Virus record (IMG/VR): IMGVR_UViG_3300045988_178965
Coordinates: 96,001 to 160,000 of that record
Strand: one strand, 5' to 3'
Length of the DNA: 64,000 nucleotides
Source of the DNA: a virus
Below the pieces are notes generated by a model. It was not told the DNA's origin. It saw only the letters and a list, made by a program, of their open reading frames with translations, and searched no databases. The position numbers and the translations under genes are program-made. Below, one piece after another: positions 19,537 to 64,000 of the stretch; position 1 is the stretch's first letter; each line of letters opens with the position of its first letter.

Positions 19537-19549
19537 GTAAATTGTAATA

Positions 19550-21663: not shown

Positions 21664-21743
21664 AATTCAATACTTTAAATCCATATTTTTTAAAAGGCAG
21701 CATCAAGGGTACATTCTTCTTACTGCCCAATTTGGAGTAACTA

Positions 21744-21819
21744 TGGTGGGAGGAACGGGATTCGAACCCGTGACCAAAGGTTTATGAGACCTCTGCTCTT
21801 ACCGCTGAGCTACCCTCCC
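21744..21819 (-). tRNA. tRNA-Met/Ile2(CAU), CCA encoded
   Basis: Acceptor GGGAGGG/TCCTCCC, D-arm GCTCAGCGGTAAGAGC, arm GAGGT-CTCATAA-ACCTT, T-loop TTCGAAT. Confidence 0.9.
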
Positions 21820-27003: not shown

Positions 27004-27894
27004 TTAAATTTTGGTCAATACAATTCGTTGTGATACTGGCTGTAACAATTCTTTTAGGTCATATAGTTTTTTAACCATTGCCTGCATACTATCCGTGCAA
27101 TAAACCTTACCATTGAAAGGACTATCATCTTTTAAAAGCTCGCCTTTAAAAATTGCAGCTTCACAATGGGCAACGACCAAATTGATAGTATAATTCTTAT
27201 GGCCGATACTTTCTGCAATTAGTTTAGACGCCAATAAGAATGTGCCGCCCTTAGAGCAAATATCATCTACAATAACAACGTTCTTAAGATCCCAGAAGAA
27301 TTTATCAGAAGTATTGTCATTTTTGACCAATGCTGAAGAGACAATATTGCCAGTTTGAAAATCACGTTCTTTGATTATTGATACACTTTGATATTCTGGG
27401 AAAAGCTTTTTATACCGCTTAACAGCAGTTGCATCTGGGAATACCAAAAGAGTATCTGTATGGCTAAAATTGTTTTTAACCATATCAACTTGAGGAATGT
27501 AATTAGTTACCGGCGCATCAAATAAAGCTAACGCCACATCAGAGTGTGCATCTAAACATTTAATACTTTTAGGTTTAATCACATTATTTACAAAATTTGC
27601 AAAAGATTTCAAAGAGAATGAATCGGATTCTCTTTCTACACGATCCATACGAGAGTATGGAATATACGGCAAATTTAATGTTAATGCAACATAAGGGTTG
27701 TTCCGGCGGATAGTATCAAATGTACAAAGTAAATCAAAGAATTCGGAGTCATCTTCATACATCATCTGAATTTCCGCAATTCCAGTTTTAGGAATTTCAG
27801 GAAATACATACATCTTTTCTCCATTCGGAAACTTTTCAATCAATGGGCGAAAATATAAACCATTAATTGTAGTATTCAATTTAATTGAAATCAT
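27004..27894 (-). CDS. ribose-phosphate pyrophosphokinase family protein (Prs, or NARP1 Adps)
   Basis: PRPP/ribose-5-P loop VVIVDDICSKGGTF. ~296 aa. ATG at 27894 with an AGAAAGG RBS; the annotated 27918 start is TTG. Confidence 0.75.
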   Translation of the reverse strand: MISIKLNTTINGLYFRPLIEKFPNGEKMYVFPEIPKTGIAEIQMMYEDDSEFFDLLCTFDTIRRNNPYVALTLNLPYIPYSRMDRVERESDSFSLKSFANFVNNVIKPKSIKCLDAHSDVALALFDAPVTNYIPQVDMVKNNFSHTDTLLVFPDATAVKRYKKLFPEYQSVSIIKERDFQTGNIVSSALVKNDNTSDKFFWDLKNVVIVDDICSKGGTFLLASKLIAESIGHKNYTINLVVAHCEAAIFKGELLKDDSPFNGKVYCTDSMQAMVKKLYDLKELLQPVSQRIVLTKI

Positions 27895-27914
27895 TTTGAA
27901 CCTTTCTAAATCAA

Positions 27915-29174
27915 TCAAAATACTTTAAATTTTGTATTTGTAATCGGTTTGCTTACTAATTTTACATCATCTGAAGATAGAAGTGTAAGTATAACTTCAA
28001 ATGCAGATTCTGGGATATCTTTGTCAGCACGACGCATAAAAGAGTAAATACTACTTGCAATATTTTCAATTTCATCATCTGCGACTCGAAGATTACTAAT
28101 AGTAGAACATCTACCTTTAATATCCAATTCCATTTCTGAAATATCAAAATACATATACATTTGTGTGCCAATAGAATTGCCGTCTTTATTTGCACGTAGC
28201 GAAAAGTCCATCAAATTTAATGATGTTTTTGATGCACCTGGTTTAATAGATATTCCCTTAAGCTCAATAGCAGAGTAATTGGTTATATTGTTTGGAATGC
28301 AATACTGAAGTTTTAATCCATATTTATCAAATACATCTTCCAATACAGAAGGAAAATCGCGGCCATTTATAAACAATATACAATCAGTATATTCTAAAGA
28401 AGAGGAATATACTTCAGAATTATAACCATCCATCAATTGTTGTACAGTAAAGTCTGGGTAAAGATTTGCTTCCTTAGCAATACTACAAACTACATCAAAT
28501 GAGGGTTCTTTTAAAAATGAAATCACAGATGCAATTTCTTGAACACGTTCTTTATTGTCAAGCAAATCTTCTAAAACTTGAAGCACAATAGAATCTGACA
28601 AAGACTCATATTCATAAGCATAACGAATACGGCTAGGTCGATTGAAAAAGTATCTATTAATTTGACCCTTTTCATTTGCTGTAAACATAAATAAATTCTT
28701 TTTAGAACTTGTCCCATCTACAACGCTCAATAGTCCACTTTGATCTAAAGGACGTTCAAACATCTTTTCAAATTCATCAATAAAGAATACGCAGCGATCA
28801 TCGATATTTTCAATGAATTTATCAATGATATTCACATGCTCTGGCAACACAATAATAATAGGATATTCTTTTGATAGTTCAACACAAACCTGCTTGGCCA
28901 ATAAAGATTTTCCAGAACCTGATTCGCCGTATAATAATACGCCAAGATTCTTATCAGTAGCTTTAAATGAATTGATAATTCGATTCATTCGTTCGGTTGA
29001 ATCGCCATAAATTTTGGAAGGAATTGTTAATGGTTCTGTAGTATTCAAAAACAATTTGCCTGGAATTGCAGCTGTTGTATAAAATCCAGCTGGCAAATTC
29101 TTTTTACAAATATTAAAATCAATATCTTTTCCAAACTCTACAACACCATTCGTTACCTGATAAATATTTTGCAT
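27915..29174 (-). CDS. AAA+ ATPase
   Basis: Walker A GESGSGKS and Walker B VFFIDEFE, followed by a long C-terminal domain of unknown function. Confidence 0.7.
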   Translation of the reverse strand: MQNIYQVTNGVVEFGKDIDFNICKKNLPAGFYTTAAIPGKLFLNTTEPLTIPSKIYGDSTERMNRIINSFKATDKNLGVLLYGESGSGKSLLAKQVCVELSKEYPIIIVLPEHVNIIDKFIENIDDRCVFFIDEFEKMFERPLDQSGLLSVVDGTSSKKNLFMFTANEKGQINRYFFNRPSRIRYAYEYESLSDSIVLQVLEDLLDNKERVQEIASVISFLKEPSFDVVCSIAKEANLYPDFTVQQLMDGYNSEVYSSSLEYTDCILFINGRDFPSVLEDVFDKYGLKLQYCIPNNITNYSAIELKGISIKPGASKTSLNLMDFSLRANKDGNSIGTQMYMYFDISEMELDIKGRCSTISNLRVADDEIENIASSIYSFMRRADKDIPESAFEVILTLLSSDDVKLVSKPITNTKFKVF

Positions 29175-33540: not shown

Positions 33541-33744
33541 TTAACTTTCGTAATGCTTCAAAACTTTAACATCTGTACAAGAACCATATCTTGAAAAATA
33601 CAATTGTTGCAATTCTCTTTTCTTTTCAACGGCTTTGTCATATCCATAACATAAACAAATTGTTTTATTGTCAAAGCCGTTTTTACATACGACTACTCTG
33701 TACAGATTATCTTCAAAATTAGAAGAAGTAACCAATTGAAGCAC
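33541..33744 (-). CDS. hypothetical small protein
   Basis: 67-aa ORF whose start overlaps the adhesin 3' end by 26 nt. Confidence 0.3.
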
Positions 33745-35512
33745 CTACACCAATTTTTTCTTGAGTGTTATAGTTAACATGAGCTTTGAATCCCCATTTG
33801 CCCATATCAGACAAAGCACTCACACCAACTGCAACGGCTGCTTCATTACCATAATAACCAACTGCTGCTGAAACTGCTGATTGTCCAGCATGATGCACTT
33901 GCATCAAAGCTGCTGCAGCATTTGCTGTTGCACCAATGGCATTTTGTCGATCTTCAACTTTATCAAATTTACGTTCCAAAGCAGCAATACTTTGAGTATT
34001 CTTCTCAACCGCACCATTCAAACGTTCAATGTTTTGTGTATTTACACCTACTTGGTTCAATGTTGCTTTGGTTTGATTAGACAGACCAACATTGTAAATT
34101 GTGTTCAAACCATTGACTGTTTTGGTAACAGCAATACCATCAACACCTGTTACAACAGCCTGTTTAGAATCAACAGTATAAATGCTTTGACCATTTGAAC
34201 CTTTTGTTTCTGTCACAAAAGTATTTTGACCAGCTTTTACTTCTGTTTTAGCTTTTGCAATTTCAACGTCTTGCTGTTGATTTTTAGCTTTCAGGCCAAC
34301 AATTTCAGCGTCTTGTTGTTCGTTTTTCACTTTCAAACCAACAATATCTGCTTTGTTAACATTTACTTGGTTCAATGTCGCTTTGGTTTCGTTTGACAAA
34401 TCAACTACATAGTCTTGAACAGAATTTGTCAATTTACCCTTGTTAACAGAGACAGCATTTGAACCTGCTGAAACTGAAGCAGAATCATCTTTTGCAGACA
34501 ATGTGTAAACGCTTTGGCCATTTGCACCTTTTGTTTCATTAATGGTGACATTTTGACCAGCTTTTACTTCGGTTTTAGCTGCTTTTGCTGTTGCTGACAA
34601 TTGAGCTACGTTTACAACATCGGTATCTTTTGTACCTGCTGAAACATTGGTAATTTGACGTGTAATACCATTTTCAACATCACCAACAGAAACAGAAGCA
34701 TAAGTAGAGGTCCAAGGCAAATCTTTAACATTTTTAATTGGTGCATTCAATGGATTAGCACCAGAAACGCCTTTATCAACAGTTGCTTTTGAATATGAGC
34801 CAATAGCAGTTGAGCCTTCAACAGCTGCTTCTGAGTAAGAACCAATCGCTTGAGCTTCTTTTGCTGAAGCGTTTGCTAAGGTACCTAAAGCAAAAGCGCT
34901 TTCATTGGAAGTTTTGGCATAAGAACCAACAGCAATGGAATAATCGGAATTTTCTGAAGTGTTAGCACCACGACCAAATGCAATGGATTGAATACCATGT
35001 GCTTGAGAATTTACTTGCAATGCTGTTGCATATTTTGCAGTTGCAACAGAACCATTACCAATTGCAATGGATGCTTCACCATCACCTTTTACACCTGAAC
35101 CAATCGCAACAGAACCACTACCAGCTGCTGTTGCTTTTGAACCAATTGCAACAACTCGTGATGCTTCAGTAGAAGAGCGTTCACCAATCACGATTGATGT
35201 ATCCGCATCTTTACCTGCTGTTGCTTGTGTACCAAAGACAATGGAAGAACTACCATGTGATTCTGTACCTGAGCCGATAGCCATAGCATTCAGACCGTTT
35301 ACAACAACGTCCTGACCAATTGCAACAGTCCCTTGGTTATTTGCCTGTACACTGTTATCATGATTGAATGTATTTACACAAATGTTGCCTTCTACGCCAC
35401 ACTTTTGCATGGCGATTGTTTCGGCATCACCTGAATAATTAGTATGCGGATTTGTATCGGCAAAAACGTTAGTAGCTGCCAGAATAGACATCAGAATAAT
35501 TGATTTTTTCAT
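33719..35512 (-). CDS. trimeric autotransporter adhesin (YadA/Hia-like)
   Basis: Signal peptide [18 protein letters not shown]. Repeated head motifs (AIGS/AIGN/AFGR/AVGS every ~14 aa). A repetitive stalk. A YadA-type C-terminal anchor ending [10 protein letters not shown]. Confidence 0.85.
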
Positions 35513-35576: not shown

Positions 35577-36344
35577 TTAAAGCAATAAAGATTTATCGCA
35601 TTCTTCGATGACTTCGTATTCACATACACGAGCCTTAGAGCCATCATAATCAATAGGCACTGATACGAAATTTCTTGGGTTGACGCGAAGTTTGACTAGT
35701 CGCCATTTACCATCAGGTGACTGTCCATAACCGCTACTGCGCAAATATCGCAATGAGGCAGCATGGAGACCTTTAGAGCATGTTCTATTGTCATCGTCAT
35801 CAATTTGGTTTCGCGGCATCTTAATCAGGGAACCAATTGAATTATTAATGGTTCCTGTATAAGAATCGGTCCAGTCTTCACGAATAACCTTATAACAGAT
35901 AACATAGCCATCTTTATCAATTTCGATATCATTGTGACCAATGAACGAATAGAGATTGTTAATTGTTTTTCGTGACGGATTTTCTTCCAAATTCTCAAGG
36001 AATTTAAGGAATGATTCTGGGGCAATTTCATTGTCACCAATTCTACAGGCGCGACTTACAAATTCTGAAATTTCCTTTTTTACCAATTCAGGTAAATCAG
36101 AATCACAAAGTTTGCCTACCAAAATGTCAACTTTATATTTGCCAATATAGACATAACGGACTTCTGAAATTTTCAAAAAGGTACGAGCCGCATTTTGGTT
36201 TTGATACCAGTCTCTAAGAATTTCATCAAAGTCATTCTTAATAACCGGAGAGTTGAAGAGTTTTGCTGTCAAAATATTTCCATTATTTTCAACAGCAGTT
36301 GCAACAATAAATTTGTCAGGATTGACTGTTACGTTGTAATTCAT
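35577..36344 (-). CDS. hypothetical protein
   Basis: 255-aa ORF. Its start overlaps the upstream gene end. Confidence 0.5.
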   Translation of the reverse strand: MNYNVTVNPDKFIVATAVENNGNILTAKLFNSPVIKNDFDEILRDWYQNQNAARTFLKISEVRYVYIGKYKVDILVGKLCDSDLPELVKKEISEFVSRACRIGDNEIAPESFLKFLENLEENPSRKTINNLYSFIGHNDIEIDKDGYVICYKVIREDWTDSYTGTINNSIGSLIKMPRNQIDDDDNRTCSKGLHAASLRYLRSSGYGQSPDGKWRLVKLRVNPRNFVSVPIDYDGSKARVCEYEVIEECDKSLLL

Positions 36345-38325
36345 TATCTAAACTTTCTATATATTTCAAGAAAACTGAATTTGGATCATTCCACATCGGA
36401 TACATCTGATCAAGGACTTTCTCAATTTCCATTTTTATCAGAGTCGCCCCAATCACAATTAATGGATGACTATTATCACCTAGATCGATAGAATCTCCAT
36501 TGTTAATTACCGAAAGTACAATATCTTTCATACGTTCTTTTAAAAGGGGCGATATAGTATATATAAAACTGCCCGGGCAAATTGATTCCGAACCAATTGT
36601 AGAGGAAAAATTGAATATAGTTTTACCTGGATTTTTACGCATTACAAATTTAGCAGCTGCGATAGCTTTTTCTTTCTCTTCATCAGTCATAACTTTAAAA
36701 AGTTTCACATAATGTATCTCATGCGGATCTGATGAGTAGAAAGTAAAAACATTTTTTAAATTGGAAACTTTAGCAGCAATAAAACCTTTAGGAGTTCCTC
36801 TACCAATATAGATATTTCTATCGGGAAAGATCTTTTTAAGAGCCTCCATCTTTCTTACATAATGGACACTCTTTGTATTTGGATCCCCAACAATAAAAAT
36901 ATCATTCTCACCGATTTCATCCAATTCATAAACAATCTTATTGGAATTGTTTGAAGAGTAGAAAACATCTGCTGAGAATTTGATAGGATCACCCTTTTTG
37001 ACAGGAATCGGTTCTCTATTCTTGCGGTTCAAATATTTTCGAATTTTAGGATCATCCGGAGTCAAGATATTACATTTCTTACCAATAGACTCCGCAAACT
37101 CCTTCAATTCTTTTTCAGGCATATCGATAAAGAATGTGACACCAGGAGGCATACAGCCTTTTGAAACTGTAATTGCACCATCATCAACCATACTTGTAGG
37201 GGCGAAATTTAAAGACTCCTCTTTAATTATCTCGATTAAATGCCCTACCATGTATTTCTTGGTATCATTCCATACTCTACTACAATATTTACCGCCATAT
37301 GTCTGATTCGAAAATGCCCACTTAACACCTTTAAGGAAACCAAAATTAAATTTATCAAATATGGTTTCAAAAATAGGTCTTGTATCTGACGTAAGCAATA
37401 ATTTGTATATCCAAGGGGTAGACAAAATTTCTTCTCTAGTCATTGCTTTGACTTTTGAATCAATTTCGTTTATTTTTTCCTTAAAGATACGAGAAAGTGT
37501 TTGTCTTAAAGCATCATCATATGTAACGGTCTCTCTGGACAAGGAGACTTTAACATCCTTAATTGGAACATCCATAATAAATATAGTATTGAACGCTATA
37601 TGTAAATGAGATATTACATAATTCGGTCCACCCACTGACATTCTAAATCTTGGAGAGCGATTAGTTTTAGATTTAATCAACCGTAAGCCGTCAACAACCT
37701 CAATAGCTTTAGCTGAAACATCTTCGCCATTTAAGTCCGTTAATTTTGGCAATGGCCAGAATCCGATTAATTCCTCATAACAAACAGGCTCTATTTTACC
37801 AACATCGTTCTGCTCAATAGGAATACGAATAGTAGTACCATTTGCGTCATCTGTATCTACATTTTCCAGCATAACCTGATAGCTAGGAATGTCGTTATTT
37901 TTAGAGGTCATAATGACATTCTTCTTGCTATCTTTTACAGATGTAGCGATGAAATAATCGGCATATGCTAACGGGCTTTTAGAGCCAATGCCAAAGCCGC
38001 CGATGCTATCATTACTGTCATTTTTAGTAGACTTAAAGAACGTAGTATAGATATTTACCATATCATCATATGTCATTCCGACGCCATGATCTTTAATTTC
38101 GATATAGTATTCTACACCGTCTTTATGAATAGAAATTTCAACTGGGCCATTGTATCCAGATTGACGATTAGCATCATGTGCATTTGCCACAATTTCACGA
38201 ATCATAGATCTAAATGGATTTGCATACAAATCACCAAATAGACTTCTAAAAGTTTTTGAGGTTACTTCAATATTATATTTATTCTCAGCTGTTGTTTCAG
38301 TCTTATTTTCAGTTTCAATAATCAT
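36316..38325 (-). CDS. GHKL-superfamily ATPase (Hsp90/MORC-like)
   Basis: Bergerat-fold motifs EIVANAHDAN (N-box), IKDHGVGM (G1) and GGFGIGSKS (G2). Confidence 0.7.
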   Translation of the reverse strand: MIIETENKTETTAENKYNIEVTSKTFRSLFGDLYANPFRSMIREIVANAHDANRQSGYNGPVEISIHKDGVEYYIEIKDHGVGMTYDDMVNIYTTFFKSTKNDSNDSIGGFGIGSKSPLAYADYFIATSVKDSKKNVIMTSKNNDIPSYQVMLENVDTDDANGTTIRIPIEQNDVGKIEPVCYEELIGFWPLPKLTDLNGEDVSAKAIEVVDGLRLIKSKTNRSPRFRMSVGGPNYVISHLHIAFNTIFIMDVPIKDVKVSLSRETVTYDDALRQTLSRIFKEKINEIDSKVKAMTREEILSTPWIYKLLLTSDTRPIFETIFDKFNFGFLKGVKWAFSNQTYGGKYCSRVWNDTKKYMVGHLIEIIKEESLNFAPTSMVDDGAITVSKGCMPPGVTFFIDMPEKELKEFAESIGKKCNILTPDDPKIRKYLNRKNREPIPVKKGDPIKFSADVFYSSNNSNKIVYELDEIGENDIFIVGDPNTKSVHYVRKMEALKKIFPDRNIYIGRGTPKGFIAAKVSNLKNVFTFYSSDPHEIHYVKLFKVMTDEEKEKAIAAAKFVMRKNPGKTIFNFSSTIGSESICPGSFIYTISPLLKERMKDIVLSVINNGDSIDLGDNSHPLIVIGATLIKMEIEKVLDQMYPMWNDPNSVFLKYIESLDNELQRNSQS

Positions 38326-38409: not shown

Positions 38410-41400
38410 TTACAGAAAATCGATATCAATTTCCTTAGCTTCTGTCACATTGTTTTCAGAGCTCGAATCAACTTCTTCGATGCTAAGTTGACCAATACAT
38501 TGATTGTATACATCAAAAGCAGGCTTAATCATTTTGCCTACGAATGTTTTGTCTACAATCAAATTGAACCACTTAGACACTTCAGGGTCTTTCAAGTCAA
38601 TAGGCTCGCCATTGTTATCAACGGTTTGACCCTTATTATGCATACGCAGGAAATCACCAGTAAGCTTAATAAGGTTATGCTGATCGGCCCAAATAGCAAT
38701 ATTAATAATGGTCATAGCTGTTTCACGACTATATCCCATTTCATTCACAATTGCCTCTACTACTTCTTTATGAACCGTTTGGTCAGAGCCTAATGTGCCC
38801 AACATGAATTTCTGATGTTGAGTTGCACCACCTTTAATATGCTTAATTGCATTGATAACGTAACGCTCATTGGTTTCAGTGTAGACATGGTCACACTCTT
38901 GAGCAAGTTTATCATTAAGTGGGATTTTTACAAACTCTTTGCCAGTTTTGCCGGAAATGGCACGATAAGCCAAATCGGAATCTTCATTCAGCAATGCCAA
39001 ATAAAGCTCAATAAGCATACCGAACTGCCAAGAGTTATTAGTGCCGGGACCCACAGCTTTCTTCGCATTGGCAGAGTTTGTAATTAAATCAATATAGCTT
39101 TCATCACCAGGACGTTTACAATAGGTCGGAGTATAATGCAACTTATACTTTTTGGTCCAATCCAATTTCTTAATGCTGTCATATTCTGATTGCAAGAAAT
39201 CTTCGTCCCATTGATACATCTTATCGGTAATGTTGCTAAGAGTGAACTCTTTCATCATTTGCTGAGCTTCTTCTGGCAATACAGTAATCTGTAGTAAGTC
39301 ACCGTCAATATCAGAGTGGCTACCTTTGATTACATCTTTGCCAATCAATGCACAATGCAAATTGGATTTGACATCCAGATAATCTTCTAATGCAAAGCCA
39401 TATTCCTGTTTGAGATAAGTGTCAAACTTGTTTACGTCCCACAATTCTTTAATCAGCAACTGTGTTTTCCACAAAAACGGTGAACGCAATGTGAAAGCAT
39501 AGAGCTTCTTAAAGGCCTGAACAATGCCTTGTTCAACCGGCAAATTCTTGGTTGGATAGACATATTCATGCAAATCGGTATAAATACGATTATTCAATAC
39601 AACGACAACGCCATCAGGGACGTATACATCGTGCATCTGTTTCATATTTACGCCGCGCAATCGTGGTGTAATCATGGTTTGAATTAATGTCTGTCCTGAA
39701 ATCTCTGAAGAATACAGCATAGACTTCAAAGATGCCATGTAATTGCCATAAGCGCTTACACGATTTTGGTTGCTCTCATTACGACTCGGAATAATCCGGT
39801 AGTAATAAGGTTTACCAAGCAAAGCATTCTGAATAATCTTACAAACTTCAATCAGAATACCAGGATAAACATACTCGCCATTCGTTTGCTTACTACAGAA
39901 CATACCCAAAGTTTTAGCATCTGGAATACGGACTAACGTATTTTGACGCTGTTCGCTTAAATTAATATAGAAGCCTTTATTAAAGTCTTCATCAAGAAGC
40001 TTAGAATACAATGGGAAGATAGAGCTATGTTCCAGAATCAAATCTTTTTCAGAGAAATGATTCTTTAAACTGCTTAATGTATAAACAGGTTTATGCTCAG
40101 CAGACACAAAACGGCGCGTCTTATCATTCAAACATTTCATCAACTCAATTACAGCTGACTTTTCATCCGGATCAATACAATTGTCCAGAATATATTGTGC
40201 CAAACCGGAATCTTTTGTTTGAGAAATATAACGTAAAGCATTAAAGCTCATCTTTTGGTTTCGAACAACCGTAAAATGGCTACCAATTTCAGTATAGTTA
40301 ATCTGAATCACACCATACAGACGAGTCTTAAACTCAACTTCCTTACCTTCACGAATCATCTTAAAGGTTACTTCCGGAATGGATTTAGCAGCAGCGTTAA
40401 TTTCTTCCTCATCCATAGATGATAAAAGCTTATCGCCAGAGGCTGGAGTATAATAGCCATATTTCAATGCAAAAGCTGCTTGCATTAAACGTACAGTATT
40501 CTCTTTAGCCTTGATACTATTGACACCTGTAAAGATGTCAACTTCCATTTCGAAATCATCGGAATAGATATGACCACAAGTCATCATGGTTTTGGTTACA
40601 CCTTTCAGACCTGTATGAGAAGTGATTCGAGAATTGCCTACTTTGTAATAGGCTACGAAATCAATTCGAGCAGAGTTGTTGTAACCATTCTGAGAAACTT
40701 TAGTTACCTCAATTTTGACAACATTATCTACTGCAATCGGACGACGATCAAATACGCCCAATGTTACAGAGCCATTTCGCGCTGTATATGTTTCGCCTTC
40801 TTTAACGAGAATTTCATCGAATTCCGTTTCTTTATGGCGATTCATAAATACAATTTGGTTACCAATACGGCGATTGACCTCTAAGTCACCGCCAACTTGA
40901 TGGTAACTCTCAAAGTCAATATCCTGATAGACAACGATTGCATCTAAGCCACCATTATCCAAAGGAATATGATCACCGTTTTCGTCGAAAGCAAATGAAC
41001 CATCAGGGTTAATGGCTGCGTCCTCAATAAACAAAGGTTTATCGGGTTGCAACACACCAAAATGGTTGCCATTTACGTGAGTTTTCAAACGAGCAGGCAA
41101 CGCTGAGGCTCTAGGAAAGATAGACGAGAATCCAACAATACGATCTTCATTATCATATTCAAAGCCAAATCCAGCGCAAGAAATTTCTGCTTCACCATTA
41201 GAGACAACAATTTTGTTGCTTTCAGAAAGCATAGTTTCTGAACCTGGCATCAGGTTAAAGCAGTTAGCCATAGCTGTAATGGCTTCCTTGTCGGGGCTTG
41301 TAATTACACGTTGATGAACCAAATCACCAATAGGCAAATCACGATTCTTATAAACCAAAGATGTTCCAGTATTAGTGCTGTAAGGCGCCCACAAAACAAG

Positions 41401-41850
41401 AAGATTTGATGATTTCAGATTCGCATTGAAAGCATTCGGGCTTACATATTCAACGAAGTTCGTAATCAGCTTAATGTCACGACGAATATAAGTCGTAAAG
41501 ATTTCGTTGTTCTTCAGAGCATCTTCAAATCGTTCAGCCAGGAAGAAGTACAACATTTCAAAGTGATTGATCACTTCAATTGGTGCCCGTTTATTAATAT
41601 GGCGCGAGCAAAATGCAAAATGAGGCCAATGATTCTTTGGATTGAAGAATGATTCAGGAATAACAAATTCTGTTTCAACCGTTTTATCATTAATCACATT
41701 GATGACTTTAAAGCCGAATGTATCAGACTTAAGTTCAAACTCAATTCGACCCTCAGCAGTCAAATGTTCACGGAAAATCGAAAACACTTCTGCTGGTGTA
41801 GAGTTTTTGTTGATTACAGGAATTTGTCCATTTGAAATTCTTAAATGCAT
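38410..41850 (-). CDS. single-chain two-barrel RNA polymerase-like protein 1 (YonO/QDE-1/crAss-vRNAP class)
   Basis: Beta-like SHTGLKGVTK (nt 40591-40620), LRSPFLW, then DIDGD (nt 39298-39312). Confidence 0.65.
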   Translation of the reverse strand: MHLRISNGQIPVINKNSTPAEVFSIFREHLTAEGRIEFELKSDTFGFKVINVINDKTVETEFVIPESFFNPKNHWPHFAFCSRHINKRAPIEVINHFEMLYFFLAERFEDALKNNEIFTTYIRRDIKLITNFVEYVSPNAFNANLKSSNLLVLWAPYSTNTGTSLVYKNRDLPIGDLVHQRVITSPDKEAITAMANCFNLMPGSETMLSESNKIVVSNGEAEISCAGFGFEYDNEDRIVGFSSIFPRASALPARLKTHVNGNHFGVLQPDKPLFIEDAAINPDGSFAFDENGDHIPLDNGGLDAIVVYQDIDFESYHQVGGDLEVNRRIGNQIVFMNRHKETEFDEILVKEGETYTARNGSVTLGVFDRRPIAVDNVVKIEVTKVSQNGYNNSARIDFVAYYKVGNSRITSHTGLKGVTKTMMTCGHIYSDDFEMEVDIFTGVNSIKAKENTVRLMQAAFALKYGYYTPASGDKLLSSMDEEEINAAAKSIPEVTFKMIREGKEVEFKTRLYGVIQINYTEIGSHFTVVRNQKMSFNALRYISQTKDSGLAQYILDNCIDPDEKSAVIELMKCLNDKTRRFVSAEHKPVYTLSSLKNHFSEKDLILEHSSIFPLYSKLLDEDFNKGFYINLSEQRQNTLVRIPDAKTLGMFCSKQTNGEYVYPGILIEVCKIIQNALLGKPYYYRIIPSRNESNQNRVSAYGNYMASLKSMLYSSEISGQTLIQTMITPRLRGVNMKQMHDVYVPDGVVVVLNNRIYTDLHEYVYPTKNLPVEQGIVQAFKKLYAFTLRSPFLWKTQLLIKELWDVNKFDTYLKQEYGFALEDYLDVKSNLHCALIGKDVIKGSHSDIDGDLLQITVLPEEAQQMMKEFTLSNITDKMYQWDEDFLQSEYDSIKKLDWTKKYKLHYTPTYCKRPGDESYIDLITNSANAKKAVGPGTNNSWQFGMLIELYLALLNEDSDLAYRAISGKTGKEFVKIPLNDKLAQECDHVYTETNERYVINAIKHIKGGATQHQKFMLGTLGSDQTVHKEVVEAIVNEMGYSRETAMTIINIAIWADQHNLIKLTGDFLRMHNKGQTVDNNGEPIDLKDPEVSKWFNLIVDKTFVGKMIKPAFDVYNQCIGQLSIEEVDSSSENNVTEAKEIDIDFL

Positions 41851-48946: not shown

Positions 48947-50335
48947 TTAGAACGGACCGTCTTCGTCGTCTGCTTGAGGTTTGGTTTCAGTAGGTTGGGC
49001 TTGACCACGACGTGGACGTTTGGTTTCTTTGGTTTGAGCAGGTTTCTCGCCTTCTACTTTAGCAGTATCAGAAAAGATATCTACATCACCCAAGTCCAGA
49101 CCGTCAACGTTCAGAGCGTCCAAATCAACGTCTGCGGCAACAGTAGTAGAGCCGGTTTCATTACGGTTGATGATATAACCGTCCATAGTAACGCGTGCTG
49201 TAACTACCCATGGTTGACCAGTTTCGTCGTCTTCACGTGGGGTGCGGCTTTCGAAACCGAGGACGTTATTCTCGGTGAACATGATTTCATCGGCATTGCT
49301 GCTTACGAAATCGAATGCTTCGGCGCGAGTTTGTCCACGGCCATTGTTGCCATTGCTGTACATAACTGCACGTACAGTAACGTCATTACCACGGCTGTCT
49401 TTGAAGTTAACGAACTTACGGCAATATTGAGTCGGATTGGTACCTTCTGTTACTTGAACACCAGCCAGATAGCCATCATGCAATTCGTCTTGCTCCAGGT
49501 TTGTCATTTCAGCTTGACCAGTAATAGTCAGACAGAAGTTAGGGGCAATACGGCCATATGCACGTGGGGTAGTGCGGACATCAATTTGTTTGCCGTTGCT
49601 GGTGGTTTTGTAACTTGCTGCTGCAATCGGTACAATGCAAGGGCTCAGGCCATTTGCACCAACGTAGATTACAGTAGAAGTCGCAATTGCACCTGCGTCA
49701 ACCAAGCGTTTGATTTCGGCTTTGTAACCTGCAACGATTTTGGCCATCATTTCAGACAGCTGTTGTTCGTTATAGGTTGCGCGTTCACCGTTCTTTTCAT
49801 AGGCGGTAACGATGCCTTTATCGTGGCTGACGAACGCAGAGCCGGACAGCAATGCTTCATAACCTTTGGTCAGGCTCAAAGCCTTCAACGCCAGGCCATT
49901 TGCCTTCTCATACCATTCGGAACCAAATGCTGGACCTACAGGAACAGGGAAGTTTGCCAATTTGCCATTTTGAATGCTCAAACCATTGAAGCCTGCATCC
50001 AGGAATTCCATAGCATTTGCATTGCTATTACGGACAGACGCAACGATTTGGTTAGTAGTCATACCTTCAACGTATTGCACACCGTCGTCGGCATTAGTAG
50101 CAACCCAGCAGGCACGGCCATTACTACGGCTCATTGGGGTATTTGCAATCATGTGCACCAGTTTGTACACGGAAATGCGGTAACCCAGGGCTTCATTCTC
50201 GTCTTGGCGAGCGTCCAATACATAGAATGTACGGCGAGATGCTGCCATTGGTGTTGCAACCTGACCGCTAACGCTGTGGAATTTGTTACGGCCAGTGTTC
50301 AGGGCGCCAGTGTCGATTTGATTCAGTTCGTTCAT
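48947..50335 (-). CDS. abundant-looking protein with an SSB-like acidic C-terminal tip (function uncertain)
   Basis: 462 aa. Strong codon bias, shown by a stop-free antisense frame. C-terminus ...KPQADDEDGPF resembles the SSB/gp2.5 acidic tails (DDDIPF, DGDF). Confidence 0.5.
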   Translation of the reverse strand: MNELNQIDTGALNTGRNKFHSVSGQVATPMAASRRTFYVLDARQDENEALGYRISVYKLVHMIANTPMSRSNGRACWVATNADDGVQYVEGMTTNQIVASVRNSNANAMEFLDAGFNGLSIQNGKLANFPVPVGPAFGSEWYEKANGLALKALSLTKGYEALLSGSAFVSHDKGIVTAYEKNGERATYNEQQLSEMMAKIVAGYKAEIKRLVDAGAIATSTVIYVGANGLSPCIVPIAAASYKTTSNGKQIDVRTTPRAYGRIAPNFCLTITGQAEMTNLEQDELHDGYLAGVQVTEGTNPTQYCRKFVNFKDSRGNDVTVRAVMYSNGNNGRGQTRAEAFDFVSSNADEIMFTENNVLGFESRTPREDDETGQPWVVTARVTMDGYIINRNETGSTTVAADVDLDALNVDGLDLGDVDIFSDTAKVEGEKPAQTKETKRPRRGQAQPTETKPQADDEDGPF

Positions 50336-54272: not shown

Positions 54273-57200
54273 TTACAGCATGTCGATAGCTTCGTCCATA
54301 TCAACATCAACTTCATGATAAGACTCAGCTTCAACAGTCTCACCATTAGCCAAGGCTTCAGCCTCAGCCAATTTAACTTCCGCTACAACCTGAATTTGGG
54401 CAATCACTTCACGGCTTAAAGCTTTCAAGATGAAGCTAAATGGAGACTTGCCGTCCATATCCAAGAGGGCATTAACACCTTTGACATCATCCAGACCAAA
54501 GAAGAATGATGTGTTATAAATCTCGGATACATCCTTAGTGTACACATCAAAGTGTACATTCTTCCAGGTTGCGGTATGAGCCATGCGGACTGCATTGGTT
54601 TTATTCCAACGGTAACCTTGCTGACCGCGGCTACGTTTGTCCTCTTCGAACAGTTCTACAAATGTCTTGGCAATTTCAAACGCCATAGAATCATCCTGAA
54701 TGAACATCAGTTCGAATGCTTTTTCAAACGCCTCAGTCATGCAGTCAATGTCAGTTTCTTTATTGCGAAGGTTCAGATATTCGCAGAAACGCACCATGCC
54801 GTTTGAGTGTTTCATGTTCTCAACGACTTCTTTTTGCAACAAGATACCCATAGCATCAATAGCCAAGTTGGCCATGTCACTATAACCCAGTTTGTTGCGG
54901 ATCAGATGTGTCAGAGTAATGAGATTATTAGTCTCACTGCCCACACCTGTCTTAGCCGCAACGATTTCCTCTACCGCTGGTTGAACGTCTTCTTTTCCCC
55001 ATACCATAACGGATTTCTCACCAATCTCCTTGGTATTCAGAGAAGATAACTCATCTTCAACATAAGAGAGTTGCTGTTTGGCAGAGTTGCAGGCCAACAG
55101 CTTAGACTCGCTCCATTGCTCTTGGCCTTCATAACCTTTGGCCCAGAACAAGGTGAGGCGGTCGCCGTCAGCATCGTCCCTATTGGCCATATGAGAAAGG
55201 GCATCAACAAAGACTACTGATTCGCAGATGAAGCGATTCAGCTCCAATTCTGCTTCAGAGTCAAAAGACATCAGGGTTTTAACCTTAGCTTCATAGAGGC
55301 GGAAGTTATTTTCCATCAAGATTGGAAACTTAATAGCACCCACTTCGCCTTTCTTAGCAGCCTCTTTGTATTGGCGGTCAGCGGTAATAACCTTAAAGCC
55401 GCTTTCAAAGTGATAGCTAACTGGCAGGCTACGACCTTTTGGCAAGCTGAATTTCAAGCCCTTGTGAGAGCCGAAAGTTTCCTCGATAGCCAGCAGATGT
55501 TTGGCATGAGTTTTAACTACTCCTGCAGCTTCCCAAGTTTTAGTGCCACGGGTTTTGGCCATCAGCACAATAGAGGCAAGTGACTTGAAGAAATCACCAC
55601 CAGTAAATTGCAAACCGGAGATATGATCTCCAGTGATTGTTTCCTGTTTGTCCCAGAATGATGCACCTGGGAATACGAAACTGTGATCACCGGCAATCAC
55701 CTCGAAGCCACGAGGCATATTTAACAGACCAGGGAAACGACCACAGCCGTTGAATAAATTAACCAGGAATGTCTTCATCACTGATTGTGAAGATTCATCA
55801 CCAACAAGTGTGGTGTATTTAACTTGTTCAACTGACAATGAACCATTGCCAGCAAACATGACAGCAAATCTATCCGCCCACCATGCACGAGTCATAGCCA
55901 AGAATTCGTTAGCGGTGCAAGACCAATCTACGTTTTTGGCAGCCGCAACAGCTTTAGCTGTTTTACGACCAGTACGGCCAGAAATGAAGGACTTAAATAG
56001 TCCCTCACCATATTGACGAATCATTTGATCCGCCAAAAGAACACCGCCTTCAGCAGAATGAGATACTGCTTCTACAACACCAGCACGCTTCATCTCCAGC
56101 AAGCGAACCACTGGAGAGTAAGTAGTATCACCAGCCTTTAACTCAGACAGAAGTTCATTCATCAGTGTCATTTCAGGAGACTCAATCTCAATCCCCTCGA
56201 TCTTATCATTGATGCTTACTTCAGTACCAACGCGACGGTGGCCTTGCAAAGTGTAAAAGTCGGAGACATAAATCTCTTCTTCGATAACCGCAAAGCTGTA
56301 CACCAGACCATCTACATTTACGGTCTTAGTGTTCATTGTAATCGCAGTATTCGCTGTTTCTCGGAAGTCTGCATCATTCAACAAACGAAGCATAAATTGA
56401 CTTAAATCGCCACCCATAATTGCATGGGCGACTCCGACCATTTTGGACTTCAGCATTGGGCTGATAATATCTACACCCAAATAGTCCACCAAAGCGTCGA
56501 TGTCGCGGACATTTGTAACAACGCCTTTGGCATGGTGGAACGATACAATACGCATAGTGCCGTACTGCTGGACAAGTTCCTTGCGGCCATAACAAGCACC
56601 GCCAGCCAAATTCATAGCCAAAGGATGATCTTTGATATCAGCCAAGCTATTAACTTTCTCACCATTCTCATTGGTTACAGATAAGAGCACAGCCACCTTG
56701 CGAACACCAATGGATACTTTGGTGTCTAAATCCGGATTCAGAATGCCCCTTGCAATTGCCTTTTTGCAATCATACACCGAAATGTATTTACCAGATTCCT
56801 CTGGGTGATTGACGGCAACCATGGTATCAGCCGCCTTGCGAGAGATAAACATAGCGTCACCAACTGGCATACCTAATTTCCAGCTGGTGTCAGGACTAGT
56901 ATTCAGCAAATCGCCTTGCTGAACCTTAACACCTTTAGGAGCAGGCTTCTCGGACTTAACTACTACAACACCTCCAGGTTTGCGCTTAAGGGCGTCCACC
57001 AATTTTACGCCTTCTGTGCCAATACCGGCCAGCCAGTCGATCAAGACGTCGATGCTTTCGGTAACGGATACAATTCCGTCTTTGTAAGAAACGAAACCGT
57101 GACGTGCAACTGTTTCACGGCCAAGCGGGGAATTTACCAAAGATGTAGCCAAAGTTCCTCTCTGTGCAACTACGCGAACAGAGCCCTTTGACGGACGACG

Positions 57201-57686
57201 AATATTAATCTCAACCTTGCCCACAATAGGCAGGGATTCACCAGCCTTAATCTTGCAAATAGTACGAGCCCATTCTTTAAGGTTAGTTAATTCCTCCTGA
57301 GTGGGAGTTTTGCCGGCCTTCACCGACTCCACTCTTTGTACCATAGTTGGCACACCTTCCACTTCAAAACTATAACTCATTTCATTCTCCTTAGTTTCAT
57401 TCAAAACGATAGCCTCTACTTCTGCATTGGCCCAAGACAGGGCCTCAGAACGAGAACCCACTTCCTTGATTGCTACAACAGCCCCGTCTTTAACAACGGC
57501 CACGATTTCAGGACGCATAGCAGCGGCTTTGCTATTGCTCAGGGCAACAACCTCAATACCAGCTGCGGTACGAATACCAGCTTTGATATGAGCTTTATGC
57601 TCGTATTGTTCTACAGCAGCTTCATAAGCTTTGGCAGCAGCAGCGTTTACAGTAGTAGTGAAAGTAGAGAATTTAATAGTTGACAT
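54273..57686 (-). CDS. single-chain two-barrel RNA polymerase-like protein 2 (paralog of 38410..41850)
   Basis: Beta-like FHHAKGVV (nt 56517-56537), IKFPILM, then DDADGD (nt 55161-55178). Motif order and spacing match protein 1. ATG at 57686 with an AAAGGAAAT RBS. Confidence 0.6.
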   Translation of the reverse strand: MSTIKFSTFTTTVNAAAAKAYEAAVEQYEHKAHIKAGIRTAAGIEVVALSNSKAAAMRPEIVAVVKDGAVVAIKEVGSRSEALSWANAEVEAIVLNETKENEMSYSFEVEGVPTMVQRVESVKAGKTPTQEELTNLKEWARTICKIKAGESLPIVGKVEINIRRPSKGSVRVVAQRGTLATSLVNSPLGRETVARHGFVSYKDGIVSVTESIDVLIDWLAGIGTEGVKLVDALKRKPGGVVVVKSEKPAPKGVKVQQGDLLNTSPDTSWKLGMPVGDAMFISRKAADTMVAVNHPEESGKYISVYDCKKAIARGILNPDLDTKVSIGVRKVAVLLSVTNENGEKVNSLADIKDHPLAMNLAGGACYGRKELVQQYGTMRIVSFHHAKGVVTNVRDIDALVDYLGVDIISPMLKSKMVGVAHAIMGGDLSQFMLRLLNDADFRETANTAITMNTKTVNVDGLVYSFAVIEEEIYVSDFYTLQGHRRVGTEVSINDKIEGIEIESPEMTLMNELLSELKAGDTTYSPVVRLLEMKRAGVVEAVSHSAEGGVLLADQMIRQYGEGLFKSFISGRTGRKTAKAVAAAKNVDWSCTANEFLAMTRAWWADRFAVMFAGNGSLSVEQVKYTTLVGDESSQSVMKTFLVNLFNGCGRFPGLLNMPRGFEVIAGDHSFVFPGASFWDKQETITGDHISGLQFTGGDFFKSLASIVLMAKTRGTKTWEAAGVVKTHAKHLLAIEETFGSHKGLKFSLPKGRSLPVSYHFESGFKVITADRQYKEAAKKGEVGAIKFPILMENNFRLYEAKVKTLMSFDSEAELELNRFICESVVFVDALSHMANRDDADGDRLTLFWAKGYEGQEQWSESKLLACNSAKQQLSYVEDELSSLNTKEIGEKSVMVWGKEDVQPAVEEIVAAKTGVGSETNNLITLTHLIRNKLGYSDMANLAIDAMGILLQKEVVENMKHSNGMVRFCEYLNLRNKETDIDCMTEAFEKAFELMFIQDDSMAFEIAKTFVELFEEDKRSRGQQGYRWNKTNAVRMAHTATWKNVHFDVYTKDVSEIYNTSFFFGLDDVKGVNALLDMDGKSPFSFILKALSREVIAQIQVVAEVKLAEAEALANGETVEAESYHEVDVDMDEAIDML

Positions 57687-57717
57687 AATGATTTCCTTTT
57701 TAAAGATAGCCGTATAT

Positions 57718-57755
57718 AAAAGAACCATATAAGAGACCCGGCTATATCTCTTATA
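57718..57755 (-). promoter_or_regulatory. variant hairpin ending ...TATGGTTCTTTT
   Basis: TATAAGAGA/TCTCTTATA stem followed by TGGTTCTTTTAT. It lies ~30 nt upstream of the ATG at 57686. Confidence 0.5.
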
Positions 57756-62021: not shown

Positions 62022-62047
62022 AGCTCCAGGGTATTAATCCTGGAGCT
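62022..62047. terminator. bidirectional terminator between convergent genes
   Basis: AGCTCCAGG/CCTGGAGCT 9-bp stem flanked by A/T runs on both sides. Confidence 0.75.
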
Positions 62048-62056: not shown

Positions 62057-62920
62057 TTAACCAATAGGGTTTGAACGAAATGATGTTGAGAAGGAATCCA
62101 TAACCTCTCTATATACAAGAGGAAGATTTTTTACAACTCTAGACTCTGTTGAGTCGTCAATCTCTTTGATTACTAGATTTGACGCTGAGAACTTATTCTC
62201 TAGGTCTCTTATTGAGTCTTCGCCGAACTGTACAGCAAGGAACTTCATTAAGTCTGTCGATTCTTTAAATGGGTTTTCTTCGCCATTACCTAGATGATCA
62301 TCAATCTCTGCTATTAGAGATTTTGGCATACATAAATTGATTTTAATCTCTTTATGTGGAATCCATTTAATTCCTCTATTGTAATTAATCGCAGTGTTTA
62401 CTAGCATTGCAACCAACTCTTTAGGAGGAACTACATAACCATCAAGGCTTTGTTCTACTACAGCTGTATAGTTGGTTCTGTATTCACCAACAGCAATTTT
62501 TCGAAGGTAAGGAATCGGTTTGTCTTTAAGTTCATCGTATGGTTGTTTGTATGTGTAACGATAAACTGGGTATTCGATAATCACGGCGCTTAAGAAGTAT
62601 TTGTTTTCTAACTCTTCAATACCGCGCATTGAGGTTCTCTCTTCTTTGTTTACCATGTAGATCAATGGGTAAATATTCACTTCATTGCAAGAGAACAGAG
62701 GGTTGCGCATCTTTTGCTCATAGAAAATACGGCCGACCTCATTATTTACGGTCTCATTTGAAGCCCATACATCGCGGACACCGGTAACATCATTATAGGC
62801 GATACGTGGAGTTAGGCACATTGCACATGTTGCGCCAAGGTTGTAATAAGTGATACGTTCTGGTTGTGATTGAAAAAACTGGTCTTGAAGAAATTCGCTT
62901 TTACTCATGTTTAAATACAT
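62057..62920 (-). CDS. hypothetical protein
   Basis: 287-aa ORF. An alternative ATG lies at 62908. Confidence 0.5.
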   Translation of the reverse strand: MYLNMSKSEFLQDQFFQSQPERITYYNLGATCAMCLTPRIAYNDVTGVRDVWASNETVNNEVGRIFYEQKMRNPLFSCNEVNIYPLIYMVNKEERTSMRGIEELENKYFLSAVIIEYPVYRYTYKQPYDELKDKPIPYLRKIAVGEYRTNYTAVVEQSLDGYVVPPKELVAMLVNTAINYNRGIKWIPHKEIKINLCMPKSLIAEIDDHLGNGEENPFKESTDLMKFLAVQFGEDSIRDLENKFSASNLVIKEIDDSTESRVVKNLPLVYREVMDSFSTSFRSNPIG

Positions 62921-63131
62921 TCCATATTATTGTTATTATTATTTTGTATAGAAAAATGTTTCCGACTTCACCTTACTATAAGGACTGTATTATACTAAAA
63001 AATGAGGTAAAAGTCAAATTTTTTACAATCATTTATTTTATTAAAAATCAATTACTTATATAGATAATAAATATTTTACACTTTCTTTACACTTTATATG
63101 TGTTATAAAATGTAAATTTTACAAATAATGC

Positions 63132-63160
63132 TTGACATTTATACCCAAAATCCGTATAAT
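63132..63160 (+). promoter_or_regulatory. perfect sigma70 consensus promoter (TTGACA-17 nt-TATAAT)
   Basis: TTGACA at 63132-63137 and TATAAT at 63155-63160, separated by exactly 17 nt. A second TATAAT lies at 63167-63172. Confidence 0.75.
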
Positions 63161-63166
63161 ATAGCC

Positions 63167-63720
63167 TATAATATTTATGACGGAATGTGCTGAGTCGGGA
63201 TAATCTACGGCATCCGGCCTTCAAGAGATATTATCTTACTGTGAACTAGTCCTAGAGAAATCTAAATAACCTCGAGAGACGGGGTCGGATGAAGCAGTAA
63301 TGAAACTCCTAGATGTGGGCAAGCCTAACCGAAGGAGTCGATCGAAAACTCGTTGTTGAAGTAGCGTAAGCTCCCTGACACTAATCATAGTAATACGAGA
63401 GGTGGCGAGTATAAATAAATTTCCTGTTATGCAGTGGATTGTAACCGATATTAATCGGCCACATGGGAAGATGAAACATCTCTGGTCTTGTAGAGATAGC
63501 ATATTGAGCTACAAGATGATACCGAAAGGTATGACTATAAATGGAAGTATTAACGGTCCAAGGTATTCCTTGGAGGGTCAAAAAGGGTGAAGAAAAAGCC
63601 TAGGATATAGCTCTCTTACAATTAGGGTTATATCAGTAAGACATCTACGTTGTACAACATGGCTAGATCGGGTTATTTTATTAAGCCACTTGCTTTGGTT
63701 AGGCCTAACTGTATCTAAAT
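63167..63720 (+). ncRNA. candidate ~550-nt structured ncRNA downstream of the consensus promoter
   Basis: No RBS-preceded ORF. Many short perfect helices, several capped by GNRA-type loops (ATACC-GAAA-GGTAT, AGC-GTAA-GCT), plus CTTGTAG/CTACAAG, CCAAGG/CCTTGG and GTGGC/GCCAC. Confidence 0.4.
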
Positions 63721-63739
63721 ATATCATATGTCTAAAAAA

Positions 63740-63935
63740 TAATAGATGGCCGCTGCGATGCGGCCCTATATTAAAAATAATAGATCAAAATTACAGATAA
63801 TACATAGGCTGCGTGATGCAGCCCTAAGATCAATAGAGAAATGAACATAAGCTTAGGATACTTACTTAAGCTTGTTATAGTCTACAATTATATTTGATAA
63901 TATTTGGAGGTAGCTTGATGCTACCTCCTATTTTA
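63740..63935. repeat. series of hairpins with a conserved apical sequence (GC-nTGAT-GC)
   Basis: GGCCGC-TGCGAT-GCGGCC, GGCTGC-GTGAT-GCAGCC and GGAGGTAGC-TTGAT-GCTACCTCC. AAAAATAATAGAT is repeated twice. Confidence 0.55.
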
Positions 63936-64000
63936 TTTGCAAGAAAAACTTACTTAAGCAAATAATACTTACTGCTTCCTGTATTGGAAGTATTCTATGA

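Follow-up and report, generated by a model that had tools for sequence, protein, structure and literature searches.

A HOLDH-family RNA gene in a lineage of large uncultured phages: extent, tertiary contacts and genomic setting

Introduction

What would be read from a perfect sigma70-type consensus promoter in phage DNA when the sequence behind it resembles no protein-coding gene? The question is raised by a locus in positions 96,001–160,000 of the IMG/VR virus record IMGVR_UViG_3300045988_178965, a stretch of 64,000 nucleotides (nt) that we refer to as the window and whose positions serve as coordinates throughout. An initial annotation made from the sequence alone had read 63132–63720 as a promoter driving a large structured RNA free of open reading frames (ORFs). 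We find that the region is a non-coding RNA gene of the HOLDH family (Rfam RF02997) in a large uncultured phage with contigs of about 170–190 kb. As the HOLDH family has already been catalogued, the gene is an added member and not a new kind of RNA. What appears to be new is how far the RNA really extends, its two tertiary helices and transcription signals, the phage lineage with its fixed locus, and a relative that lacks the RNA cassette. Below, we establish the identity and fold of the RNA, describe the signals that bracket it and the locus in which it resides, and weigh the roles that it may play.

Identity of the RNA

The HOLDH covariance model matches the + strand of the window at 63168–63532 over its full length (model positions 1–391 of 391), scoring 374.6 bits where the gathering score is 319.4 (E = 6e-103, or 3.6e-101 with the whole window scanned). 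The match is not cut off, has a mean posterior of 0.99 and occurs on the + strand only; no non-canonical pair is flagged in the NC line of cmscan, and 84 of the 86 consensus pairs of the alignment are present in the window sequence. HOLDH is the sole non-tRNA Rfam match in the window, and within 62900–64000 no other family reaches E ≤ 1 save DapZ and mir-268, both sub-threshold chance matches of 21 bits. The Rfam scan suggested in the initial annotation thus supplies a name, and the families put forward there (ROOL, GOLLD, 6S, group I and II introns) are unmatched; like RNase P, tmRNA and phi29 pRNA, they are excluded as families, none of them having an Rfam match.

Rfam classes HOLDH as a gene, not as a cis-regulatory element. 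Its accession falls within what we take to be the block of families from the 2017 motif set of Weinberg et al.; the main text of that paper makes no mention of HOLDH. In a published table, 6 of 95 pairs covary significantly among the 10 sequences of the Rfam alignment, and a kink-turn is predicted by CaCoFold-R3D (PMC11702757). Beyond that table entry, no mention of the family turned up in the searchable literature.

We gathered relatives by pattern scans of IMG/VR and metagenome contigs with the most conserved core sequence. The scans returned full-length HOLDH RNAs in 7 IMG/VR and 16 metagenome contigs, all scoring 367–409 bits, and a probe from the neighbouring 287-amino-acid (aa) protein led to a more divergent pair, L035 (323 bits) and L036 (312 bits, below the Rfam threshold of 319.4). 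In total, 23 distinct HOLDH sequences fall into six clades (A–F), and the window sequence belongs to clade A. Six further contigs were discarded as chance pattern matches: L008, a contig of a Bacteroidetes metagenome-assembled genome, L025–L027, matched by a 3'-domain pattern, and L040 and L041, matched by a looser core pattern. Looser patterns found no further HOLDH lineage in IMG/VR, and the region has no counterpart among 50,697 cultured-phage records in close and distant BLAST searches, at the sensitivity of blastn.

The possibility that the region is a protein-coding gene was rejected on the same comparison. No ORF is common to the six clades, and since none is conserved we prefer a non-coding reading. 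Most indels between clades are not multiples of 3 (3–13 such indel runs per comparison). The initial annotation had noted that no + strand ORF carries a ribosome-binding site, and this stands: the longest (GTG start, 63402–63590, 62 aa) has GAGAGG abutting its start without spacing and exists only in clades A–C.

Comparative evidence for the core structure

To evaluate the core, we aligned 20 distinct cores from the six clades with MAFFT and transferred the Rfam consensus to the alignment by way of the window sequence. The relatives agree with the Rfam structure and covary according to it: 94.8% of cells pair, compared with 36–47% when the partners are slid, and compensatory changes on both sides are found at 39 of 84 pairs, against 6–10 when slid, a number that none of 500 shuffles reaches. 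Invariant G·U pairs in the core, present as U-G in 20 of 20 sequences and as G-U in 20 of 20, would be A·C mismatches on the opposite strand; hence, the RNA strand is +. Together, the Rfam match and this covariation, which the initial annotation had recommended seeking in related phages, uphold its central proposal of a large structured non-coding RNA.

The individual helices fared unevenly. Of the eight that had been listed, five are backed by covariation: ATACC-GAAA-GGTAT (63519–63532), CTTGTAG/CTACAAG, CCGAT/ATCGG and ACTCCT/AGGAGT are covarying Rfam helices, and CCAAGG/CCTTGG is a covarying helix of the 3' domain described below. The GAAA tetraloop that was thought to cap the first of these is not conserved in clades B and D. 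The remaining three are wrong or mis-partnered. The GCT of AGC-GTAA-GCT pairs instead with AGT at 63389–63391 (AU, GU, GC and UA are all seen), and the C-G pair of the proposed hairpin is lost uncompensated in clades B, C and F; AGATG/CATCT gives way to a pseudoknot, PK1, in which CATCTCT pairs with AGAGGTG; and, in place of GTGGC/GCCAC, the CCAC at 63459–63462 pairs with GTGG at 63434–63437 and not with GTGGC at 63402–63406.

Between helices P1 and P2 on the + strand lies a candidate kink-turn formed by UAUGACG (63176–63182) and AAGA (63223–63226), with possible tandem G·A pairs. The internal loop keeps the pattern UGA...GA, in which G58 and A59 are invariant and G12 and A13 are at least 90% conserved, and it may be the kink-turn predicted for the family (PMC11702757). 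A likeness of AAUACGAGAGG (63392–63402) to the sarcin-ricin loop of 23S rRNA was dropped, since its key positions are not constant (clades E and F have UAUGAAAG) and PK1 takes up part of the stretch.

A 3' domain beyond the Rfam model and two tertiary helices

The Rfam HOLDH model stops at 63532, whereas the constrained RNA defined here extends a further 184 nt and pairs back to the core. This 3' domain (63533–63716, + strand), delimited by conservation and covariation, ends in TAGGCCTAACTGTATCT and is covered by no Rfam family. It is present in all members of clades A–D (nhmmer E = 1e-47 to 1e-65), and a similar domain occurs in clade F (local alignment z = 11.5). Clade E has no recognisable counterpart; its long tail looked plausible by eye as a homologue and was dropped (z = 0.4, no nhmmer match). 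Four helices are supported by covariation: 63557–63563/63568–63574, 63576–63579/63666–63669, 63604–63614/63624–63634 and 63636–63642/63649–63655. Across them 96% of cells pair. Double changes occur in 9 of the 27 pairs, against 0–2 when slid and with 3 of 500 shuffles doing as well. The changes include the swap of a whole stem, from TCCAAGG/CCTTGGA to TGATACC/GGTATCA, and inserted, clade-specific hairpins covary too (GAGAC/GTCTC in L012 and L015, GGAAC/GTTCC in L013).

Conservation ends at 63716, close to the end at 63720 that the initial annotation had claimed, and then drops, such that the tail of clade A is 76, 58 and 26% identical to those of clades B, C and D, respectively. Judged by conservation and covariation, the constrained RNA is therefore about 549 nt long (63168–63716), some 185 nt (about 50%) longer than the Rfam model.

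An unbiased scan for covarying antiparallel stacks, which also recovered the Rfam helices, found two tertiary helices. PK1 is a 7-bp pseudoknot within the core that joins AGAGGTG (63398–63404) to CATCTCT (63477–63483) on the + strand, both unpaired in the Rfam consensus line. It is seen as AGAGGUG/CAUCUCU in clades A–D, AAAGUUG/CAACUUU in clade F and in the clade E members L001 and L004, and AGAGUUG/CAACUCU in the clade E member L017. As covariance models cannot encode pseudoknots, PK1 may already be drawn in the original HOLDH motif. PK2, of 8 bp, joins a core internal loop, GATTGTAA (63437–63444), to the loop TTACAATT (63616–63623) of the long hairpin of the 3' domain, both on the + strand. 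Its strands read GAUUGUAA/UUACAAUU in clades A–C, GAUUGCAA/UUGCAAUU in clade D and GAUUAUC/GAUAAUC in clade F; clade E, which is without the 3' domain, has no PK2 partner. For PK1 and PK2 together 98.6% of cells pair and 5 pairs are doubly changed, against 0–1 when slid, figures that reflect six distinct haplotypes with registers set by hand. The covariation of PK2 shows that core and 3' domain belong to one fold or to one assembly. Other stacks from the scan (GGAG/CTCC, ATGGGA/TCTTGT, TCTA/TGGA and TTGT pairs) were set aside as repeats, as low complexity or as conflicting with better-supported helices.

Promoter and upstream elements

Upstream of the RNA, the sigma70-type promoter consists of TTGACA (63132–63137), a 17-nt spacer and TATAAT (63155–63160) on the + strand, the exact consensus that the initial annotation described. 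This is the single 12/12 site in the window, where 0.05 are expected (3 of 60 dinucleotide shuffles had one). Only one other site at 17-nt spacing comes within one mismatch, and it lies in the same intergenic region: a divergent sigma70-like promoter found by the consensus scan, TTGACT-17-TATAAT (63017–62989, - strand, 11/12), for the 287-aa gene. By comparison, sites matching at 10 or more of the 12 positions number 39 against 37.6 expected, i.e., chance level. The HOLDH promoter is thus an outlier and not one of many, and most genes of the window are probably not read from consensus host promoters.

In all six clades the -10 hexamer (TATAAT; TACAAT in L018) ends 7 nt before HOLDH position 1, which places the predicted start at 63167–63168, the first paired nucleotide of the RNA. 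The -35 box is more variable: TTGACA or TTGACT in clades A–C, TTGCAT in clade D and weak in clade F. Clade E combines TTGACA with a 19-nt spacer and an extended -10 element, TGnTATAAT.

Two further elements lie upstream. Between the divergent promoters are two TTTACAC boxes, 11 nt apart (TTTACACTTTCTTTACACTTTA, 63075–63096, + strand), which account for the TTTACA-like boxes of the initial annotation; relatives in clade A share them, and clades E and F have boxes resembling TTTACA. The pair is possibly a regulator site or a site of DNA bending. Directly upstream of the -35 box, the palindrome TGTAAA-T-TTTACA (63112–63124) is a candidate operator or UP-like element. It is imperfect in clade C, and in clade F its place is taken by a longer one, TGTAAAAATATTTTTACA. 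Palindrome and boxes together may form the binding site for a regulator of the RNA gene.

Tail, terminator and transcription unit

Downstream of the conserved body, the tail holds two GC hairpins on the + strand that are conserved in clades A–D and occur nowhere else in the window. The first, GGCCGC-N6-GCGGCC (63748–63765), has no + strand T-run and is T-rich on the - strand; in clade D it reads GGCCAC/GTGGCC, a compensatory change. The second is GGCTGC-N5-GCAGCC (63807–63823), and a third + strand hairpin, GCTTAGGATACTTACTTAAGC (63851–63871), is present in clades A–C. The terminator scan then finds an intrinsic terminator on the + strand, GGAGGTAGC-TTGAT-GCTACCTCC followed by the T-run TATTTTATTT (63906–63938; stem 63906–63928). 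The same stem recurs in clades A–E, at +739 to +1451 from nt 1 (as AGGAGTAGC/GCTACTCCT in clade E), and is absent in clade F. In clades D and E, where the tail is long, it holds no credible ORF.

The order from promoter to terminator, in the same orientation, is kept in five clades. From the positions of the two signals we predict a primary transcript of about 770 nt with a conserved body of about 549 nt, the terminator probably marking its end. The downstream ORF begins about 317–320 nt past the terminator. The leader of about 317 nt between terminator and ORF (63929–64000 and beyond; L016 4171–4487), which precedes a 446-aa gene, is 90% identical between clade A and clades B and C. It is more conserved than the flanking coding genes (78–85%), shares short motifs even with clade E, and could be another regulatory or RNA element. 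A phage-specific promoter motif drawn from TAATACGAGTCTAT and CTATACTAAA in the post-terminator leaders of clades A and E was rejected; it does not recur in the window beyond chance.

Phage lineage and locus

The larger HOLDH contigs measure about 107–189 kb and belong to one lineage of large uncultured phages. Their gene order is the same in clades A–E, all five of which were checked: a 162-aa gene (+), a GH24 endolysin gene (+), the 287-aa gene (-), HOLDH (+), a 446-aa intein-containing gene (+), a TnsA-N/"head closure"-like gene (+) and an RNase-T-like 562-aa gene (+). In clade F the immediate neighbours of HOLDH are likewise the 287-aa gene and the intein gene. Identity of the flanking-gene proteins between clades falls to 40–60%. 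In the window, the 287-aa gene (62057–62920, - strand) adjoins the HOLDH cassette divergently, and its product has no Pfam or PHROG match. Between it and the convergent endolysin gene (+) lies a bidirectional terminator (62022–62047), a GC-rich hairpin of 9 perfect base pairs with a T-run on either strand. Of the genes 3' of HOLDH, the first, whose orthologue is at L016 4488–5828 and which lies just beyond the right end of the window, has an intein inside it (Pfam Intein_splicing, 2e-17). The product of the second begins with a TnsA-like endonuclease N-terminal domain, and that of the third has an exonuclease domain of RNase-T-like type.

In one related phage, L037 (IMGVR_UViG_3300015601_000310, oriented 2772–2970), the 287-aa gene and the intein gene are only about 195 nt apart and HOLDH is missing. 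Because both flanking genes are kept, the cassette is an accessory insertion at this junction. The 287-aa protein, for its part, does not depend on the cassette, and its candidacy as an obligate partner of the RNA is weakened, since L037 retains the protein without the RNA.

Between clade A and clades B, C and D, nucleotide identity is 92, 84 and 78% for the core and 79, 78 and 69% for the upstream gene; the core also exceeds the downstream gene against B (82%) and D (69%) and about equals it against C (85%). On this comparison of nucleotide conservation, above the upstream gene and, against B and D, above the downstream gene, the core is under selection.

Comparison with known large RNAs

With its 3' domain, HOLDH is of the same size class as ROOL, an RNA of about 580 nt that is multi-pseudoknotted, encoded by phages and prophages, non-essential, very abundant where measured, and assembled into an RNA-only cage (PMC5737381; PMC12286853). 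Both are phage-borne and accessory. However, ROOL is often found beside tRNA islands, whereas HOLDH lies about 41 kb from the tRNA cluster of the window and no tRNA occurs in any HOLDH locus examined; and ROOL spans several phyla, whereas we find HOLDH in a single phage lineage. Neither ROOL nor GOLLD matches the window at gathering level, or 62900–64000 at E ≤ 1. GOLLD, which phages and prophages carry, is giant and ornate and divides into a conserved half and a variable one; its expression rises in phage lysis, and it forms a 14-mer cage (PMC12286853). HOLDH resembles it in that its core is conserved while its 3' part and tail vary more, but the conserved part is the 3' region in GOLLD and the 5' core in HOLDH, and HOLDH has no embedded tRNAs. 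OLE, a large bacterial RNA, binds a protein partner through a kink-turn that its function requires, and is seen as a homodimer in cryo-electron microscopy (cryo-EM) (PMC12286853 and references 17–21 therein). HOLDH has a candidate kink-turn; OLE, however, is chromosomal, found in extremophilic Firmicutes and accompanied by dedicated Oap proteins encoded nearby, whereas no partner gene is evident at the HOLDH locus.

Two smaller RNAs are also instructive. The phi29 pRNA is phage-encoded, is read from an early host-type promoter and multimerises by covarying intermolecular loop-loop pairing; its ring structure is cited in PMC12286853 (reference 35). At about 170 nt it is essential for packaging, in contrast to the approximately 550-nt HOLDH RNA, which is absent from L037, has no Rfam pRNA match and no shown link to portal or terminase. 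6S and other protein-sponge RNAs, a type that the initial annotation had put forward, are abundant, stable and act in trans by binding protein. Structurally, 6S is a rod of about 180 nt with a central bubble that mimics open promoter DNA, whereas HOLDH has a branched multi-domain fold, and no 6S-family model matches the HOLDH region at E ≤ 1.

Possible roles of the HOLDH RNA

The explanation that we favour, with a probability of about 0.8, is a stand-alone, accessory, structured RNA gene in a self-contained cassette whose product would act in trans as a folded RNA. The cassette, comprising the sigma70-type promoter, the 365-nt core, the 184-nt 3' domain, a tail with two GC hairpins and the intrinsic terminator, sits between the divergent 287-aa gene and a rightward gene block. 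Judging by the promoter, as the initial annotation did, host RNA polymerase holoenzyme would transcribe it strongly once phage DNA enters the cell, and the primary transcript of about 770 nt would run to the terminator. It may then be trimmed to the body of about 550 nt, or may keep the GC hairpins as 3' protection, and the RNA would fold into a compact multi-domain particle. HOLDH would act by its shape, neither by antisense pairing nor by control of the next gene, and would bind a protein or associate with its own copies, as is known or proposed for OLE, ROOL and GOLLD, of which all three form RNA-only homo-oligomers (PMC12286853). The benefit to infection would be accessory rather than an essential step.

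Several points weigh against this reading. As a sign of structure, the helix density invoked in the initial annotation does not hold up: the minimum free energy z-score of the single sequence is -1.40, a stability that 6 of 100 shuffles equal, so helix density alone is not beyond chance and the proof of structure is comparative. That comparison is in turn phylogenetically shallow, because every copy found sits in one phage lineage with a fixed gene order, and the covariation is carried by about 5–6 independent clades. The 3' domain is not universal, since clade E is without it. Transcription is predicted from sequence signals. Clades D and F have a poor -35 box, the tail hairpins resemble - strand terminators (the scan flags 63748–63765 as such), and the host sigma70 holoenzyme is a generic attribution. 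Finally, a partner, oligomerisation and an activity are all proposals.

A more specific version of the favoured explanation, which we regard as possible though unlikely, is that HOLDH belongs to the ROOL/GOLLD functional class, as a phage RNA of about 550–620 nt that self-assembles into a defined homo-oligomer through intermolecular loop-loop pairing, like the ROOL and GOLLD cages or the phi29 pRNA ring. PK2 is a loop-loop helix, and covariation is blind to whether pairing occurs within or between molecules; on this reading PK2 would be an intermolecular domain swap. The same contact would be made symmetrically in clades with palindromic loops or without the 3' domain: both PK2 loops of clade D contain the palindrome UUGCAA, and the core loop of clade E, which has no 3' domain, is an 8-nt palindrome, UUUGCAAA. 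The conserved palindromic 3' end UAGGCCUA of clades A, B, C and F may be a second contact. Inclusion of the 3' domain also brings HOLDH into the ROOL size class (PMC5737381; PMC12286853). However, short palindromes are common and clade D, with UAGGCCCA, does not keep UAGGCCUA intact. The RNA is also away from the tRNA island of the phage, unlike many ROOL and GOLLD genes, and it has no sequence or model similarity to ROOL, GOLLD or pRNA. An essential, pRNA-like role in packaging is argued against by L037, a related phage without the cassette.

The size of HOLDH, its two pseudoknot-type contacts and its near-invariant, formally unpaired stretches (e.g., 63340–63370 and 63390–63420) are also typical of catalytic RNAs, and it could, as the initial annotation had considered, be a ribozyme that cleaves or processes itself or acts on another substrate. 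We consider this somewhat less probable again, as the same features would suit a structural or protein-binding RNA of the kind of OLE or ROOL, no Rfam ribozyme or intron family matches even at E ≤ 1, and there is neither flanking exon-like or repeat context nor a known reaction.

It is improbable that HOLDH is a cis-acting 5' leader, i.e., a riboswitch or attenuator that controls the 446-aa intein-containing gene and later genes. Those genes are on the same strand as the RNA with no other consensus promoter before them, and the stretch of 317 nt from terminator to ORF is itself highly conserved (90% between clade A and clades B and C). However, the strong, conserved intrinsic terminator separates RNA and ORF, their distance varies by more than 1 kb (from about 0.3 kb in clade F to 1.6 kb in clade E), and L037 keeps the gene arrangement without the RNA. 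These three observations lead us to prefer a trans role. In addition, 550 nt with two tertiary helices is far above the size of known leaders, and the Rfam type is gene. The initial annotation had named a mere leader of a downstream gene as the alternative to its proposal; with the conserved terminator (63906–63928) and the leader of about 317 nt intervening, this is not borne out.

The least probable alternative is a DNA-level element such as a replication origin, packaging site or recombination site, for although the locus is a module boundary with several hairpins and palindromes nearby, the compensatory changes keep G·U wobbles on one strand only (this strand-specific covariation is why we prefer an RNA), the covariance-model match is strand-specific, five clades have the region enclosed by a promoter and a terminator that face the same way, and the 48 covarying nested pairs and two tertiary helices have no DNA-level rationale.

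Other features of the window

Elsewhere in the window, 12 tRNA genes, including two for tRNA-Met and three for tRNA-Leu, lie among small ORFs at 13481–21819 (- strand), with an HNH homing endonuclease gene inside the cluster at 17765–18229. The cluster also encodes a 531-aa Ro60-like protein (19743–21338, - strand; Pfam vWA_Ro60, 1e-11; PHROG 850 "RNA-binding protein", 2e-37). Downstream of this gene, on the same strand and past tRNA-Pro, are two 121-nt tRNA-like elements (19416–19536 and 19137–19257, both - strand) with intact acceptor, D and T arms and an insertion of 62–63 nt in place of the anticodon arm. They score 47 and 46 bits with the Rfam tRNA model, are not called by ARAGORN, and could be Y-RNA-like partners of the Ro60-like protein or tRNAs with an insert.

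A 597-aa protein encoded at 33719–35512 (- strand) has the YadA head, stalk and membrane-anchor domains of trimeric autotransporter adhesins, which is unusual for a phage and suggests a diderm host. The genes for a nicotinamide phosphoribosyltransferase (25508–26992, - strand) and a ribose-phosphate pyrophosphokinase (27004–27918, - strand) adjoin one another and form a salvage pair for nicotinamide adenine dinucleotide (NAD), as in large lytic phages. There is an rIIA-like gene at 36316–38325, and three genes on the - strand, 38410–41850 and 54273–57728 (about 1150 aa each) and 48947–50335 (462 aa), have no Pfam or PHROG match.

Implications

HOLDH is among the few orphan RNAs of bacteria and phages longer than 350 nt and has barely been studied. 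Our analysis adds about 20 further distinct sequences in six clades, a home lineage and a defined transcription unit, and the two tertiary helices fix the global fold of the RNA. Furthermore, 63168–63716 gives the correct construct boundaries for structure probing, cryo-EM and activity screens, and L037 provides a natural HOLDH-less relative for comparison. The recovery of a genuine structured RNA gene and its boundaries by reading raw sequence alone also serves as a positive control for genome scans of this kind. For the biology of large phage RNAs, HOLDH offers a third, unrelated RNA of similar size on which to test the generality of RNA-only cages; should it prove to assemble into oligomers, the current Rfam model would cover only about two thirds of the assembling unit.

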